From a virus (Duplodnaviria > Heunggongvirae > Uroviricota > Caudoviricetes): DNA of 35,575 nt. Positions within the stretch are counted from its first letter, which is position 1. Each line of letters opens with the position of its first letter. Location: IMG/VR virus record IMGVR_UViG_2579779007_000007. The stretch is one strand, 5' to 3'. This document shows positions 1-34,123 of the stretch, in pieces. The notes under the pieces are model-generated. The model was not told the origin of the DNA. It saw nothing but the letters and a program-made list of their open reading frames with translations, and did no database searches. Both the position numbers and the translations under genes were made by a program.

Positions 1-21
1 ATGCGAGAGACAGTCGAAATT

Positions 22-351
22 ATGCGTTATCCCGTCACTCTTACACCCGCGCCGGAAGGCGGTTATATGGTTTCTTTTGTGGATATCCCTGAAGCGTTGA
101 CCCAGGGCGAAACTGTCGCTGAAGCGATGGAAGCGGCAAAAGATGCTTTACTGACCGCATTTGATTTTTATTTTGAAGATAACGAGCTTATCCCGTTACC
201 TTCGCCATTAAATAGTCATGATCACTTTATTGAAGTACCTTTGAGCGTCGCCTCTAAGGTATTGCTGTTAAATGCTTTTTTACAGTCAGAAATCACTCAG
301 CAAGAGTTAGCCAGGCGAATTGGCAACCCGAATGTAGTCAACCCAAAATAA
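22..351 (+). CDS. hicB: HicB-family antitoxin, N-terminal domain only; ORF ends after 8 unrelated codons, apparently disrupted by the AT-rich element
   Basis: Translation MRYPVTLTPAPEGGYMVSFVDIPEALTQGETVAEAMEAAKDALL... matches the enterobacterial HicB N-domain as recalled. Start of an Xre-like HTH (ITQQELARRIG) is cut off near nt 331. GC drops from about 50% to about 35% after nt 340. Confidence 0.6.
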   Translation: MRYPVTLTPAPEGGYMVSFVDIPEALTQGETVAEAMEAAKDALLTAFDFYFEDNELIPLPSPLNSHDHFIEVPLSVASKVLLLNAFLQSEITQQELARRIGNPNVVNPK

Positions 352-1721: not shown

Positions 1722-2276
1722 ATGAAAGAAGAATTAACCCTTACAGAAATTTCCCGTTTATACGGCTATTCATTGAATGGTGGCGCTAAGCGATGGATAG
1801 AAAGGGGATTGCCATTTAACACCAATACCCGCCGCGTGCCAGCCAAAGAAGGAACAGAATGGGTCTTGAAAAATATTATCAACCCGCTTAAACAAACTTC
1901 TATCAAAGAACAAATCGATGTAGAGAAATTACGCCGTGAACGTGCTTTGGCAGATGCAGCCGAACGAGAGAACCAGGAAAAAATGAATCTCCTGATTCCT
2001 GTCGGTTATGTAGAACAGGAACTAGCGGAATATTGCGGGAAAGTGAAGCAGACTATTTTGCAGATCGCCACAATTGACGTTTTGGAAGTTCTCGAATCTG
2101 CCACCGACCAGAAAACATTGAAGAACAAATTAAGGGAGATCATCGAGCGTCGTTTAAATGAAGTAGGGGACTTGTTCGAAAATGCTGATTTGGGAGAAGA
2201 CGAGGAAGAAGAATTACCATTAATGGATGAACCGGAAGAAGAACCAGAAGAAGACGATGAATTTGATGTGTCTTAA
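1722..2276 (+). CDS. lambda Nu1-like terminase small subunit (putative)
   Basis: 184 aa. N-terminal winged-HTH-like segment, central EKLRRE..AL.DA segment resembling lambda Nu1, acidic C-terminus. RBS GGAGG. Pairs by family with the gpA-type large terminase at 8493. Confidence 0.5.
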   Translation: MKEELTLTEISRLYGYSLNGGAKRWIERGLPFNTNTRRVPAKEGTEWVLKNIINPLKQTSIKEQIDVEKLRRERALADAAERENQEKMNLLIPVGYVEQELAEYCGKVKQTILQIATIDVLEVLESATDQKTLKNKLREIIERRLNEVGDLFENADLGEDEEEELPLMDEPEEEPEEDDEFDVS

Positions 2277-3248: not shown

Positions 3249-4250
3249 TTAAGCTGCGTATGCGTAGGCGCTGTAGTTGGTGTCGTAGATAGCGTCATGC
3301 AGTGCCATCTGTGCTTCGCGGATCTCGTCTTCGTTTACTTCAATCTCTTCTTGTTCTTCTTCGGTATCTTCCCAAGTGGTTTTGAATTTAGCCATAAAGT
3401 TATTGCGCAGGGATTCAAAGTTAGTAACAGGTGCGGATTTTTCTTCAACCGGAACTACTACCGGATCAGCTTCTTTCTGTTCTTCCTGTTCTACTTTTTC
3501 ACCATTACCCCAGCGATAGTTAAGGAGTTCTTCCAGTTCTTCATCAATGGATTTTTCTTCAACTGCTTCAACTTCAACCGCTGCTACTTCGAAAGTGGTT
3601 TCCTGTGCTGCCAGTTCAGCTTTCAGAGATGCGTTTTCAGCTTCCAGTTCAGCAATGCGTGCTTTCAGTGCTTCAACTTCGGAAGATTCAACCACTGCAA
3701 CTTCTTCTTTAACTTCTTCAACTACTACCGGAGCAACTTCTTTCTGTGCTTCTTTTTTGCAGAAGAAGGAGGAAGTAACCTGTAATGCGTGGTTGTAGAA
3801 GGAACCGCCTTTAGCGGTGTTAACAGTACCAGAAACATCCTTTACAGTGGATTCGGTAGCAACAGTACGGAAGCGTTTTGCGACTTCCTGGGTCTCTACG
3901 CCGTATTCGTTACGCTTGCTCTTGTGATGCATTACAGCACGGAAGCCGGAAGCAGTTTTAACAACAGCCAGATAGTAAGTTTCATCGGCTTTAACAGCAC
4001 GAGCGAAGCAATAAACGGATTCACCTTCTACCAGTGTAGGTTTAACGTGACGTTTGTCGAAACGGTTAGTGATCTGCCATTCAGCACCGTCTTTGATGCC
4101 AGCATTCTGACGCATTTCGGTCAGAGTCTTACCGGATACTACTTCAAAGGATTTGTCTTGTTTGCTTGCTTTACCTTCCATGACGGTAATGTTCAGTTTG
4201 CCGTTGGATTTAATAAACAGGTTGAAGGTGATGCGCTTAGAATTTTTCAT
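3249..4250 (-). CDS. hypothetical protein: N-terminal globular domain, central coiled coil (EALKARIAELEAENASLKAEL), acidic C-terminal region
   Basis: 333 aa ORF with RBS GGAG. Coding-like composition. No family recognised. Confidence 0.6.
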   Translation of the reverse strand: MKNSKRITFNLFIKSNGKLNITVMEGKASKQDKSFEVVSGKTLTEMRQNAGIKDGAEWQITNRFDKRHVKPTLVEGESVYCFARAVKADETYYLAVVKTASGFRAVMHHKSKRNEYGVETQEVAKRFRTVATESTVKDVSGTVNTAKGGSFYNHALQVTSSFFCKKEAQKEVAPVVVEEVKEEVAVVESSEVEALKARIAELEAENASLKAELAAQETTFEVAAVEVEAVEEKSIDEELEELLNYRWGNGEKVEQEEQKEADPVVVPVEEKSAPVTNFESLRNNFMAKFKTTWEDTEEEQEEIEVNEDEIREAQMALHDAIYDTNYSAYAYAA

Positions 4251-4367: not shown

Positions 4368-4550
4368 TTACCAGACCTCGGCGGTAATCTTTACTTTAAT
4401 ATCATACTTCTTTAAGAGTTTGTGGAAGGTTGATTGATCAATACCTTCACCTTTAAACCATTCACCCATCACTACATCAGGTGTCAGTTCAAAATAACGC
4501 TTTGCCATTTCTAAAACGATTTCACGAGTGAACTTAACAGGTCGTGCCAT
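4368..4550 (-). CDS. small HTH DNA-binding protein (60 aa)
   Basis: Strong RBS AGGAGGA. Pattern FTREIVLEMAKRY...GIDQSTFHKLLKKY resembles IS/phage-type HTH. Confidence 0.5.
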   Translation of the reverse strand: MARPVKFTREIVLEMAKRYFELTPDVVMGEWFKGEGIDQSTFHKLLKKYDIKVKITAEVW

Positions 4551-4907
4551 CTTATATCCTCCTAAATCTGGAATAATGATTTCTTAAAAAAGAGCTTTTC
4601 GCTCTGAACAATTCTATTTATAAAATGTTTTTCGAAAAACCCTGTAAAACCACTGTATATCCGATCAGTGGGAGCACGAATTGCTAAAGAGAAGATTAAT
4701 AATTAATCAATTCGTACATTATTCAATCGAATAAGCACTGTATGTTTAGCCAGTTCTGTATGAATTAACAGTGAGTCAGGGGATTTTCAGAAGTGAACAA
4801 TCATTTCATGCATGTATTTATACACGAAAAAATCTTGCGTATCATCAATATGGGGATTGTTTCGAAAATTTCAACCCCTACCAACGAGAAAAAGCATAAA
4901 ATAATCC

Positions 4908-4921
4908 TTGACAGTTGTCAA
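4908..4921. promoter_or_regulatory. palindrome TTGACA-gt-TGTCAA (back-to-back -35-like hexamers or operator)
   Basis: Perfect 6-bp arms. A leftward -10 candidate TATGCT lies 17 bp away on the minus strand, positioned to drive the 4550-to-2991 cassette. Confidence 0.3.
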
Positions 4922-4946
4922 TACACTTGATCTAAGCGAGAAATGA

Positions 4947-4969
4947 CTATCAAAATTTTTGTGTGAAAA
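4947..4969. repeat. direct repeat copy 1: CTATCAAAATTTTTG-TGTGAAAA
   Basis: Near-identical 22-23 bp copy at 5096..5117. A DnaA-box-like TTATCAACC sits between them at 4983..4991. Confidence 0.5.
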
Positions 4970-5095
4970 TGGCGGATAACGATTATCAACCTTTATAACC
5001 TATTATAGCACGGCGACCTTTTGATAATTCTTTTTAAATCATGCATTTACGGCGGTTTTTGGTGATTTTCTGGTTAAATAATATACAAGAATTTT

Positions 5096-5117
5096 CTATC
5101 AAAATTTTTGATGAAAA
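5096..5117. repeat. direct repeat copy 2: CTATCAAAATTTTTG-ATGAAAA
   Basis: See copy 1. This copy directly abuts the iteron array. Confidence 0.5.
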
Positions 5118-5118
5118 A

Positions 5119-5239
5119 CCTACACTACAAACCTACGCTTTAAAGGGATTGGCCTACACTACACTAGCCAGTAAACCTACACTATAACACCCTCAAACCT
5201 ACACTATGAAACCTACACACCTACACTAACCCTACACTT
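5119..5239. repeat. iteron array: about 8 direct copies of CCTACAC(T/G)(A/T) in about 120 bp
   Basis: Copies start at 5119, 5132 (variant), 5153, 5176, 5198, 5212, 5220 and 5231. Several spacings are 21-23 bp. Preceded by an AT-rich tract, inside a 1.27-kb stretch with no ORF of 60 aa or more. Confidence 0.7.
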
Positions 5240-5584
5240 CAATCTCATAAGTGTATGATCTTGAAAGACATTTCACCCCACAGACCATAGAATATAAAAT
5301 TCGAACTAACGTTCTCCTTTTTGCTCGTTTTCTCTCACTACGTTCAAGAAAGATCTCGCAAAAAGAATACGGCGTAGCCGTGCGCGAAGCGCCCATCAAC
5401 ACCTTCTAAGACCTGCAAGCAGGATTCGAAAGGGATTGGATAGTTCGCTTCGCTCACGTTCACGCCTACGGCGTTCACTCGCTTTTGAAAGGATTTTCTT
5501 AGAAAGGGATTTAATACTAGTTACTAACTGATTCTAGTAAACGAACGAAGTGAGTAACAATCACTTTCTAGAAAGGTATTGGTT

Positions 5585-5613
5585 ATCCCTTCGGGATTGC
5601 AACCTTCGGTTGC
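5585..5613 (+). other. two tandem GC-stem hairpins with TTC(G) loops (candidate structured RNA element)
   Basis: ATCCC-ttc-GGGAT immediately followed by GCAACC-ttc-GGTTGC. No clean T-run follows. Confidence 0.35.
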
Positions 5614-5817
5614 TAAATTGCTTCCTGATTATTATTTCTCCAAAAGAAAGATTCTTATATTCTAAAGATACTTCTTCGTTTTGATGATGATTTAATCAAA
5701 CCATGAAGGAGGGCTTTAGCCCGACTGAATACAATCACCTTTCATAATAACAAGAATTTTCTCTTTATAAATAATAGTGAACTTACTTGATTCACTTTCT
5801 TTTAGAGGATTTCCACT

Positions 5818-8406: not shown

Positions 8407-8492
8407 ACACCCTCCTTAAATCTTAATACCGTATTTATCAAAATATCAACAATTTAATAAATACCTTCATATTTCGTAATGAGGGTAATTAC

Positions 8493-10400
8493 ATGAAACT
8501 GATTTCTAATAAGGCAAAATTAAAAAAGATTCTCAGAAATGCAGCCAAATATATTACGCCACCGCCTAAACTCCTTCCATCGGAATGGTGCGAAGCGAAT
8601 CTAACGCTAGTCGATGGTCCTCGTGCTGGGGATAAAGTTAAATTGCTGTCATTTCAGAAAGGCATGATTGATGCTCCTTTCCTTGAGAAGAAAAAGAAGT
8701 ACGTTTTTTGTACGAGTGCGCAGATCGGAAAGACGACCATCATGTCAGGGATCATGTTTAACCAGATGGCAAACGATCCGTGTAATATCATTATCGGGCA
8801 AAGTACCGCTAAAGAAGTGGCTATGTACTTGAATACTAAGATCCGTCCTTCTATTGAAGCATGTCCGGCATTACAGGAAGTGGTAACAGATAAGAATGAT
8901 CGTAATGCGGTAAACAACAATAACCAGATTCAGCTAAAAACAAACCATTTCCTTTACATGGTTTCTTTGACCAGTCCTTCAAGTTTGCGCGGGCGTACTG
9001 CCAAGTTAGGGATTGTAGACGAATGCGACGCAGCAACAATCACCGAAGAAGGTTGCCCGGTGGCACTAACTGCAAACCGTTTAACTACCTTTGGTGATGA
9101 AGCTCGATTGATTGTTTCTAGTACCCCGACCAATAAGCTGGGAATCATTAACCAGCAATGGTTATCAAGTGATATGCGTATGTTTTTTGTTCCGTGTCCT
9201 CATTGCGGGGAACACCAGGTGATCGAGTGGGAAAACGTTCAATTTGAATGGCGTAACATTGATGGTAAGAACTTACCCGATCCTGATACCGCTCGTTATA
9301 TTTGCCCCCACTGTAAGAACGCATGGACAGAAGGGGAACGAATCAGGGCAGTAGCGCAAGGCGAGTGGAGAGCAACCCGTGAAAGTGAAGTAGCAGGATT
9401 CTGGATCAGTCGTCTGTATTCACCTTTCAGCACGATCCGCGCTTGTGTGGTTGATTTTAGTCATGCGTGGCAATCCTTTGATTTACAATCCTTTTTTAAC
9501 ACCGTGTTAGGCAAGGTATACGACGATCAGGACACGGCAGTAGAAGCAAATGAACTGGAACAACTCAAAACAGATGTTTCTATCGAGAATATCCCTGATG
9601 ACGTGATTTTCTTGTGTGCGGGTACTGACCAGCAATTAGATCGCGCAGAAACTACGATCATGGGCGTGGCAAAGGATAAGATTTATATTCTGGATCACCG
9701 CAGCTTTTACGATCATAACTGTGAACGATATGAATCACCTGTATGGGATAGATTAATCAACTTCCATAAAACCAAATTTACTACTGTATCGGGTGATCGT
9801 GTTCCTATGCTCGCCAGCTTCCTTGATACATCGAACGGTCGATTCACTCAAGCTGGATACCGTATTTGCGGCAAGTGGAAGAACTTACACGCTATCAAAG
9901 GTAGTTCTGCTGGTAACGCTCCGATCATTCCGGTTAAACCTACCCGCACAGGTGGTCATGAATTGCTTATGCTGGGCGTTAACGTTGGGAAATCCGCTGT
10001 TCGTGAAATGCTGGTTAGAAACCTGAAAGATAATCCTCATATTGGCTTAGAAATATCAGAAACCATTCCTGATGATTATCTCGATCAGCTTTTGAGTGAA
10101 TCCATCAAGCGTACTACTACTGGCGTGCGTTGGGTGAAAAATCCAGGTAGTACCCGAAACGAGGCTCTCGACTGTCTGGTTTATAGCTATGCTGCTTCTC
10201 GCTACGTTCTTTCAAAAATGTCATGGGATAAACTCATTGCAATGAAAGACAGCTTAAACCGTGTTGTCGAAGAATCCGTAGAAGCTCCTAAATCGCAATC
10301 TGACGAGCAAATCGAAGAAAATAAGCCAATCACACGACCACAACGTAAAAACATCGCCAGACGCCCAAATAGAGGCCGTAGCTGGGTAACATCGTTCTAA
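8493..10400 (+). CDS. terL: terminase large subunit, lambda gpA family
   Basis: 635 aa. Recalled gpA-family blocks: [45 protein letters not shown]. Confidence 0.9.
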
Positions 10401-32394: not shown

Positions 32395-34074
32395 TTAAAT
32401 TCCAAATTCTTGTAATGGACCTGGTATTTCTTCTTCTGGTTTCCAGTTCTTATCTGTCAGCATGTCTAAACATGGATGCAGAACAAGCCCGTTACTCTCC
32501 AGAATCTGCCTATCATTGATAGTCTTCAAATCAACGAAGATCCGGCCTTTCCTCGGTCCTCTTGAATTTTCTATTACAACTCTCTGGGTCTTGCCATCGA
32601 TGTATTCCAGTACAAACAAGTTTTTGTACTTGTCAATCCTGCTACACCCGATCCGTTTTAGAGCTTGCTTAATCTTAAACCGGACCTTAATGCGATCCTC
32701 GTTGTAAACATCTTCTAAATCAAATTCTGCGAGCTTCTCCCAGCCTTGAGAGTCAACAGAATACATTTCCTCTTCTGCCATCTTAAGTTGATTGTAGAGT
32801 GTTTCACGCTCGCTATTGAGGGTAGTAATCTGATCGGCTAGCTCCTTCGTTGCTCCTGTCATAGCAGAAAGGGTAATCAGGTTATCAATCTTGCGTGATA
32901 TTTCATCAATCTGTACTTTCAAAGCCGGAACCGGATTAGCCTTATCTTCAGCAATCCAGATTTTATCAGCCAGCAATTGCAATACAGCTTTCTCTAATTG
33001 GTCGCCGCGAAAACTCCAGTTTGTATGCACACATTCAATACGACTAGAGCGCATTGCATCGCATGAATAACGATATTGGTTAGGCCGTCTGTTTGTTCCT
33101 TTCACCTTAACCATAGCGGAACCGCAATGTTCACATTTCAATAGACCAACACCACTAAGCAAGGGAATAGGTTTAGCTTCTTCTTTGTCTCCAAAGTTAC
33201 ATGCTCTAACACCAATGCTTTTCTTAAGGTGATAAAACTCAGCGTCATCTAGCACACGAGGATAATAATCCTTTAACTCATACTTAACGCCATCTACAGA
33301 GATTTCCTTGATACCAATCAAAGCGCGGGTATGGAACAACCTTTCAATCATTGCCCGTGACCAGTTTGAATGCCTCTTGTGACTTGCGGCTGGTGGTGGT
33401 GTGTATGTCGCGTTAAGGTGATCCAGTATCTCGGCGGTTGACCGTCCATTCCTGCGTAATTCCACAACTTCCTGAACAATAGGGAAGAAGACCGGATGAG
33501 GAAGCACATAACCAGATGTGGTATCAGTCCACCACATATTCTTTCCAATTTCCTCGATTGCAACAGCCGGATTTTGTGGATTTTCTTGATGAGCTTTAAT
33601 CTTAATCAGTGCGCTTGAGTTAGTACGATTGCGCTTAGTCTGGCTTTCCTCATTACCACGGATGAATAAAAGGATGGAGAACATCAGGTCCATCGGGTTA
33701 GCGGTAACAGTATCAAGCGAGTAGATCTTGTTATCCATGCCAGTAACAATGGTTATCCCCCTACGGATGATTGAAAGGAATAACTCCTGCGCACTGACAA
33801 TATCGGCACGGGATAAACGGTCCAAGTTTTCGATGAATAGCCAGCTACCAACAGGAACGGATCTACCTATTGCATCAAGGAAACGAGATAGCGCCCCTGT
33901 TTTGGAGTTAGCACCCTTAAACGCAGATACACCCAGATCCTGATAATCATTTACCAGTTCAAGGTCATACTTTACCGCAATCTCTCTAGCCATCCTGATT
34001 TGTCGTTCATAACTCGAACCATCATTCTGACGCATAGACGAGAAGCGAATATACGAATACAGTTTAGTTTTCAT
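32395..34074 (-). CDS. large serine recombinase (candidate integrase)
   Basis: About 560 aa. N-terminal resolvase-type motif YIRFSSMRQ, recombinase domain, zinc-ribbon cysteines (CEHCGSAM...YRYSC), C-terminal coiled coil. ATG start at 34074; the ORF track uses a TTG at 34089. Confidence 0.85.
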   Translation of the reverse strand: MKTKLYSYIRFSSMRQNDGSSYERQIRMAREIAVKYDLELVNDYQDLGVSAFKGANSKTGALSRFLDAIGRSVPVGSWLFIENLDRLSRADIVSAQELFLSIIRRGITIVTGMDNKIYSLDTVTANPMDLMFSILLFIRGNEESQTKRNRTNSSALIKIKAHQENPQNPAVAIEEIGKNMWWTDTTSGYVLPHPVFFPIVQEVVELRRNGRSTAEILDHLNATYTPPPAASHKRHSNWSRAMIERLFHTRALIGIKEISVDGVKYELKDYYPRVLDDAEFYHLKKSIGVRACNFGDKEEAKPIPLLSGVGLLKCEHCGSAMVKVKGTNRRPNQYRYSCDAMRSSRIECVHTNWSFRGDQLEKAVLQLLADKIWIAEDKANPVPALKVQIDEISRKIDNLITLSAMTGATKELADQITTLNSERETLYNQLKMAEEEMYSVDSQGWEKLAEFDLEDVYNEDRIKVRFKIKQALKRIGCSRIDKYKNLFVLEYIDGKTQRVVIENSRGPRKGRIFVDLKTINDRQILESNGLVLHPCLDMLTDKNWKPEEEIPGPLQEFGI

Positions 34075-34081
34075 ACCATTT

Positions 34082-34123
34082 CCAAACAAAAACGCCCCTA
34101 CCGCGTATTATAACGATAGGGGC
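34082..34123 (-). terminator. minus-strand terminator upstream of the recombinase
   Basis: On the minus strand: GCCCCTATCG-loop-CGGTAGGGGC followed by GUUUUUGUUUGG. The loop contains TATAAT. Confidence 0.4.

Follow-up and report, generated by a model that had tools for sequence, protein, structure and literature searches.

Among otherwise similar lambdoid phages, the type-specific N-terminal domain of the O protein covaries with the sequence of the iterons. The lambda origin is located inside the O gene, and O works together with the P helicase loader. In phage Mu the early operator comprises the repressor sites O1-O3 and an IHF site, located between the divergent promoters Pe and Pc. In the Mu repressor a DNA-binding domain at the N-terminus is combined with a coiled coil and with a C-terminal tail that is sensitive to degradation, and heteroimmune relatives of Mu swap repressor and operators together. 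In R6K and pSC101, IHF sites beside iterons or operators assist complex formation (PMC4980987), and for phage lambda the sequence of the cohesive end has been confirmed (PMC9611059).

Here we present the description of a locus in which two 22-bp direct repeats bracket an AT-rich segment next to an array of iterons, together with its comparison to the relatives of the prophage that carries it. The repeats are a conserved and probably architectural cis element of an ordinary kind in a so far uncharacterised prophage family.

The prophage and its gene context

The window, i.e. the whole stretch of 35,575 nucleotides that was analysed, corresponds nearly exactly to one prophage of about 35 kb inserted in hicB of E. 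coli, and strains CE0007a and H2 share 99.8% identity with it. Relatives of this prophage are carried by 58 of 5426 complete E. coli genomes (about 1%), whereas deposited phages and plasmids contain no nucleotide-level match to the region and two scans of GTDB representative genomes delivered nothing. The family is undescribed in the literature searched by protein accession and integration site. Its members are integrated in hicB, with the antitoxin gene split, or, in other strains, in ycdX (window 1-351 plus the right end; L012 and L014), which indicates at least two serine-integrase specificities. The closest phage record is that of Escherichia phage DCP80 (PQ671644.1), with a large terminase 43% identical. 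This GenBank 'complete genome' is a chimeric scaffold, in which positions 1-30720 represent a circularly assembled relative of the prophage with a terminal overlap of 113 nt, followed by a run of N and a T4-like genome; being chimeric and circularly assembled, the record yields no information on genome ends.

The structural genes of the prophage are of the siphovirus type, and a large serine recombinase is encoded at the right end (32395-34089, minus strand). The small terminase TerS (184 aa; 1722-2276, plus strand) is Nu1-like and belongs to phrog_57 (E=1.5e-11), the family into which Nu1 of lambda itself falls at 1.3e-76. The large terminase TerL (8493-10400, plus strand) is of the gpA type with the ATPase and nuclease domains of gpA (PF05876 and PF20454). 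TerL occurs in two types with about 58% identity to each other, while TerS is 92-96% identical (L061, L063, L064, L011, L013, L016), indicating that the terminase pair itself is mosaic. In a sibling prophage of E. coli PE15 (L011; NZ_CP041628.1, 477-3272) an ISApl1-mcr-1-pap2 colistin-resistance unit in the left arm takes the place of the TerS region. An exact IHF consensus, TATCAACAATTTA, adjoining TTATCAAAA, is found at 8435-8456 in the 86-bp gap between the divergent genes for p201 and TerL. No recognisable replication gene was found in the prophage, and no non-structural gene of the family has a recognisable function.

Repeats and iterons are housed in an ORF-free gap of 1267 nt (4551-5817). 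To the left of the gap lies a leftward operon that encodes p60, p333 and an 80-aa coiled-coil protein. To its right lies a rightward operon, whose first gene encodes an acidic protein of 155 aa (p155) and is followed by the gene of a Rha-like regulator. The first gene of the leftward operon (4368-4550, minus strand) codes for p60, a small HTH-like protein, the types of which track neither the iterons nor the adjacent core module described below.

The paired repeats and the module that contains them

Copy 1 of the repeat, CTATCAAAATTTTTGTGTGAAAA, is located at 4947-4969 on the plus strand, about 60-82 bp upstream of the transcription start predicted for the leftward promoter PL. Copy 2, CTATCAAAATTTTTGATGAAAA, at 5096-5117 on the same strand, carries the palindrome TCAAAA-T-TTTTGA (6+1+6). 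Both share an exact core of 15 nt, CTATCAAAATTTTTG, followed by a TG/A difference and by TGAAAA. The core occurs exactly twice in the window, at 4947 and 5096, with a start-to-start distance of 149 bp, and the exact 14-mer TATCAAAATTTTTG is confined to the two copies within the 35.6-kb window. When 4551-5117 was shuffled 300 times with its dinucleotides preserved, no exact direct repeat exceeded 13 nt, as compared to the 15 nt observed. Being unique in the window and not reproduced by the shuffles, the two repeats are confirmed at the positions and in the bracketing arrangement in which the original prediction had placed them. The contact of copy 2 with the iterons was also borne out, as the first iteron, ACCTACACTA, adjoins it directly at 5118.

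The DNA between the repeats has a G+C content of about 30%. This spacer (4970-5095) is composed of conserved blocks at 4981-5007 and 5056-5095 and of variable patches at 4970-4980 and 5043-5055. Positions 5075-5115, which adjoin the iterons, belong to the least stable 0.08% of all 40-bp windows of the prophage. Neither phased A-tracts nor tandem repeats of the 13-mer type were detected in the segment.

The best match to a sigma-70 promoter in the region (10/12) is the predicted PL, TTGACA-17-TATGCT (4893-4921, minus strand), with the -35 hexamer at 4916-4921 and the -10 hexamer at 4893-4898, the latter being TATACT in most relatives. The -35 hexamer lies inside the palindrome TTGACAgtTGTCAA (4908-4921). 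PL is separated from the iterons by 196 bp (4922-5117), a spacer predicted to be untranscribed. The predicted PL leader of about 300 nt (4591-4886, minus strand) begins with a hairpin, GGGGATTG...CAACCCC (4852-4878), ends before p60 in a terminator-like hairpin (4591-4605) and folds with z values of -1.5 and -1.75. The leader is highly conserved, and rearranged blocks of it, namely AGCACGAATTGCTAAAG and the GGGGATTG...CAACCCC hairpin, are common to the alternative module core B described below; it is reminiscent of the RNA-based immunity leaders of P4, P1 and N15. Just past the iterons a rightward promoter, PR, is predicted from its consensus match TTCACC-17-TAAAAT (5272-5300, plus strand), in the part of the iteron module that is specific to the type (5118 to about 5370).

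To the right of this part, a block at 5371-5620 (plus strand) is common to all relatives irrespective of core and iteron type. It contains four direct copies of RAAAGG(G/T)ATT at 5428, 5487, 5502 and 5571, with a fifth copy at 5142, interleaved with short GC-rich hairpins of the tetraloop type (GCGCGAAGCGC, CCCTTCGGG and GCAACCTTCGGTTGC). A hairpin-rich analogue is located upstream of TerL in the DCP80 record. The block could be a true universal cis site, perhaps cos, or a structured leader RNA.

The PL leader, PL and the repeat-bracketed segment together constitute a module, core A (about 4599-5118), that is replaced as a unit in a part of the family by an unrelated module of about 480 nt, core B. 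Siblings with core B were obtained by a TerL-based search of IMG/VR. Among the complete E. coli genomes 31 carry core A and 27 carry core B, and one strain harbors two prophages, one of each kind. The swap is bounded on the left by the terminator-like hairpin at 4591-4605 and on the right by the exact point at which copy 2 meets the iterons. Core B has short blocks in common with the leader part of core A (4615-4880) only and nothing in common with 4923-5117. In the core-B phage L044 (4601-4657) two tandem minus-strand promoters, TTGACA-17-TATAAT, each following a TG and each matching the sigma-70 consensus at 12/12 positions, directly adjoin the iterons. The core-B siblings have the same TerS and a TerL with 91-97% identity, a range that applies to core-A siblings as well, and the segment is absent from their entire genomes. 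One of them, L054, possesses p333 of type 1 together with type-1 iterons, which indicates that the segment is not essential to the pair of p333 and iterons. No protein that covaries with the core allele was found among TerS, p60, p155, Rha, p85, p201, TerL and the products of the right-arm genes; the partner of the segment should thus come either from the host or from the conserved proteins of the phage. The segment is an allele-specific insert between the predicted leftward promoter and the iteron array.

For the comparison with related phages that had been proposed as a check, 23 distinct versions of 4551-5130 were gathered from E. coli chromosomes, IMG/VR and metagenomes. All 23 contain both repeats, at a spacing of 149 bp in 21 sequences and of 148 bp in two, and the distance from PL to copy 1 is also essentially invariant. 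The segment is nearly free of indels despite a substitution divergence of 2-15%. Variable columns amount to 5 of 23 in copy 1 and 3 of 16 in copy 2 (19-22%), compared to about 30% region-wide and about 55% in the two variable patches, and the repeat cores are the least variable blocks. The clustering of variable columns in the segment is not significant (P=0.28), so that the footprint-like pattern is a weak one. Relatives share 85-98% identity with the window in 4923-5117, while identity at the fourfold-degenerate sites of p201, TerS and TerL amounts to 65-92% for most of these pairs of genomes. As it diverges less than these neighboring sites, the segment appears to be under purifying selection. 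Its interior has no further copy in E. coli genomes, which argues against a mobile element.

Iterons, p333 and the role of the segment

The iteron array contains eight direct copies of (A)CCTACAC(TA) (5118-5239, plus strand) with spacings of about 11 or 22 bp. Three unrelated types of array occur to the right of copy 2 among the relatives: type 1 is the ACCTACACTA of the window, type 2 is TTTTTGCCCCTGAAA, and type 3 is (T)ATCCCCG, arranged in two clusters. The iterons of the window are C-rich and G-poor on the plus strand; all three types are C-rich on this strand and have repeated spacings of about 11, 13 and 21-23 bp. Type-3 phages have two tandem genes for proteins of about 335 aa along with their two iteron clusters, and in some core-B arrays two leading iterons of type 1 precede those of type 2.

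The type of the array covaries perfectly with p333 (WP_000798183.1; 3249-4250, minus strand), which is 94-100% identical within an iteron type and 20-27% identical between types. No such covariation is seen for TerS, p201, p60, p155 and Rha, and TerS is 88-97% identical across all three types. Because the iteron type follows p333 and not TerS, we firmly infer that the iterons are the sites of p333. These predicted binding sites would constitute either an origin, with p333 as initiator, or an operator, with p333 as repressor. The protein is built of a variable, beta-rich N-terminal domain, an acidic coiled coil and a short C-terminal tail (...YAYAA), and the N-terminal domains of types 1 and 3 show marginal homology. 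No match to p333 was found in Pfam, PHROG, NCBIfam or the sequences of the PDB, nor were homologues found on plasmids; an exhaustive HMMER search of 1.8 billion representative proteins delivered only three true clusters of homologues, and two structure models of low confidence (pLDDT 51 and 59) gave no fold match. The C-terminus (window 3249-3290) reads ...NYSAYAYAA, and in strain C325 (L016) the AY dipeptide is expanded about tenfold. We take the resemblance of this ending to the ssrA degradation tag (...YALAA) as a hint at ClpXP-controlled turnover.

Most likely the repeats form a pair of binding sites for a protein that bends DNA or binds it as a dimer, and host IHF is our best guess for this partner. 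Both repeats agree with the IHF core WATCAANNNNTTR in 12 of its 13 positions. Sites with at most one mismatch are common in the window (73 one-mismatch matches, 61 expected); four of them lie within 162 bp (4948-5109), for which about 0.3 would be expected from the window-wide rate. An exact IHF consensus was not found in the segment. On this basis we tentatively favor a role of the segment with its repeats as an architectural spacer that links PL to the complex of p333 and iterons. From the anatomy, conservation, allele structure and covariation observed we infer protein binding, bending and an effect on PL as follows. The protein p333 would oligomerise on the phased iterons, and two bends at a fixed distance of 149 bp would fold the spacer, so that the p333-iteron complex could contact or influence PL, which would drive the p60-p333 operon, e.g. 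in autoregulation of p333. The very unstable 40 bp beside the iterons would serve as an easily deformed flank for the complex. In the core-B siblings the same coupling would be achieved without a spacer, the promoters being placed directly against the iterons. Most of the facts in favor of such a spacer suit a flank of an origin equally well.

It is possible, though on balance rather unlikely, that the p60-p333 operon, the core spacer and the iterons represent a previously undescribed phage control or replication module. In such a module an orphan-fold DNA-binding protein, p333, would exist in at least three interchangeable specificities with matching arrays and act either as the sole initiator or as a Mu-like immunity repressor. 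The spacer would then be one of two wirings of the module to its own promoter or to host factors for bending or unwinding.

The main rival of the architectural spacer, unlikely as it appears to us, is that the segment forms the host-factor and unwinding half of a p333-dependent iteron origin, in which p333 would fill the iterons, IHF-type bends would help to melt 5075-5115 and the host helicase would be loaded there. An origin of this kind would agree with the spacing of the direct iterons of about 11 or 22 bp in all three types, with a cognate type-specific protein whose gene lies close by and points away from the array, and with the position of the least stable DNA of the region next to the iterons. 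As the prophage lacks a recognisable replication gene, p333 is the candidate initiator, and the joint swapping of N-terminal domain and iterons is familiar from the lambdoid O proteins and their origins. The layout also resembles iteron-plasmid origins with an unwinding element and IHF sites (PMC4980987). Iteron origins have at least three direct repeats in helical phase, and the eight copies at 5118-5239 provide these; a known Rep-family initiator was not found in the searches of Pfam, NCBIfam, PHROG, PDB and folds with p333. The protein is unlike any Rep, winged-helix or other known initiator family, as far as its low-confidence models allow, and has no plasmid homologues. As for an unwinding element, 5075-5115 is unstable, yet there are no tandem 13-mers, and the segment is dispensable in the siblings with core B. 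Its absence from 27 siblings, including L054 with the same p333 and iterons, means that it is not an indispensable unwinding element; it could be one of two alternative origin flanks. The position of the iterons between two divergent promoter-like sites is equally apt for an operator array.

A DnaA-box-like site had been noted within the segment as a part of an origin-like or packaging-recognition architecture, although the match was called weak. The sequence in question, TTATCAACC (4983-4991, plus strand), is present with two mismatches, both of which fall into the critical CACA half. Matches of this quality to TTATCCACA number 140 in the window, compared to 124 +/- 10 expected, so that the site is not significant and its frequency is that of chance, and the region contains no match to the consensus TTATNCACA with one mismatch or less. 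The segment is without dependence on a DnaA box. The original prediction is thus partly supported, in that a conserved cis element is joined to genuine iterons with a cognate protein and may well be origin-like in its architecture, and is not supported for the DnaA box.

We regard it as improbable that the paired repeats are a functionless relic of the duplication or insertion that created core A and look conserved only because the allele is young. The segment is indeed allele-specific and dispensable in siblings, its variable columns show no significant clustering, and no partner protein was found. However, it diverges less than fourfold-degenerate sites in nearly every pair, it has kept its spacing nearly without indels at 2-15% substitution divergence, the repeat cores are its least variable parts, and an interior without other copies in E. 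coli does not indicate a mobile element.

Still less probable is a cohesive-end site, with cosN at the GC island GCACGGCGACCT (5008-5019, plus strand), which resembles the lambda sequence GGGCGGCGACCT, and with the flanking repeats and IHF-like sites serving terminase assembly in the manner of lambda cosB. The phage does encode a Nu1-like TerS and a gpA-type TerL, and CGGCGACCT, nine bases of the lambda end, occurs at 5011-5019 once in the window where 0.10 occurrences are expected. The island agrees with the lambda end in 9 contiguous bases and at 10 of 12 positions, and a partial dyad is centred near 5015 (8 of 14 positions symmetric). Three-mismatch matches to a 12-mer of the lambda end are at chance level, and in gapped alignment to lambda cos 13 of 500 shuffles scored as well as the segment, while other tiles of the window scored better. 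The island varies among core-A relatives, in which the 9-mer is replaced by GGAGATCT, GGTGACCT, GGCAACTT and others, and one and the same variant of it accompanies TerL types sharing only 58% identity. Iterons associated with cosB would be expected to track TerS; they track p333. In metagenomes and IMG/VR no contig terminus coincides with the site: pattern scans of these collections found only contigs that span the island, and contigs from the TerL-based locus search break at the iterons or further to the right. The 27 core-B siblings with the same terminase (TerS and TerL 91-97% identical) carry an unrelated allele in place of the segment and lack it anywhere in their genomes, which contradicts the recognition site for packaging that had been suggested. 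With the segment absent beside the same terminase, the island untied to the TerL type and the alignment not significant, a cos site was dropped as an explanation. The segment is almost certainly not a packaging site, and the identity of its island to the lambda end is judged coincidental or unrelated to cos; an annotation that was plausible but wrong is thereby removed. A further candidate for the position of cos is a conserved leader of about 250 nt upstream of the TerS gene (1470-1721), which starts at TTGACA and contains GC-rich dyads such as TAGCGCGGTTGCTACGCGACTA.

It is very improbable that a transcript of the segment serves as a small RNA or codes for a short peptide, e.g. from the 48-codon ORF 5041-5187, since in spite of that ORF and of a neighboring PL leader that looks like a conserved RNA, both strands fold less stably than shuffles (z +1.35 and +0.95), there is no Rfam match, no promoter-like site inside or pointing into the segment and no terminator inside, and the ORF has its first codons in the most variable patch and its 3' half in the swappable iterons. 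Non-conserved repeats or a small RNA would have spoken against the original prediction; the repeats are conserved, and by folding and Rfam neither strand looks like a structured RNA.

The control region consists of independently swappable cassettes, namely the p333 type, the iteron type, and core A or B. This structure, the specificity-matched p333 and the exclusion of cos make the family experimentally tractable, and the orphan protein offers a direct handle on the replication initiator or the immunity repressor of the family. The p333-iteron system and the cassette-like control region are a more interesting by-product of the analysis than the repeats.

Comparison with known systems

With lambda cos (cosQ-cosN-cosB, with the R sites of Nu1 and the IHF site I1) the locus shares the terminase type, the nine-base identity to the cohesive end and the setting in AT-rich DNA with IHF-like sites beside repeats. 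It differs in that siblings sharing the terminase lack the segment, that repeats and iterons do not track TerS, that the alignment to lambda cos is not significant, and that one terminase gene lies 2.7 kb leftward and the other 3.4 kb rightward instead of being adjacent.

The lambdoid O proteins and their origins resemble the present system in the type-specific N-terminal domain with a matching type of iteron, as in p333. Unlike those of lambda, the iterons are intergenic here, about 870 bp from the p333 gene, and a recognisable P-like or DnaB-like partner is lacking.

The iteron-plasmid origins R6K gamma ori and pSC101 ori (PMC4980987) likewise combine phased direct repeats with a replicon-specific protein encoded alongside, the binding of which is predicted in our case, and their arrays are adjoined by AT-rich DNA with IHF-type sites, which are candidate sites in our case. 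In contrast to these replicons, p333 has no similarity to Rep_3, pi or RepA, a DnaA box is missing and the AT-rich segment is an optional allele. The present element, moreover, belongs to an integrated prophage and not to a plasmid.

From the Mu operator the locus is set apart by the lack of sequence similarity or detectable fold similarity, by iterons that all point the same way and are positioned upstream of the two promoter-like sites instead of overlapping them, and by the long acidic region of p333. It corresponds to that operator in the multiple repeats between divergent promoters, which are predicted ones here, in the IHF bend, a putative one here, in the layout of the repressor, which that of p333 would resemble, and in the joint swapping of protein and sites.
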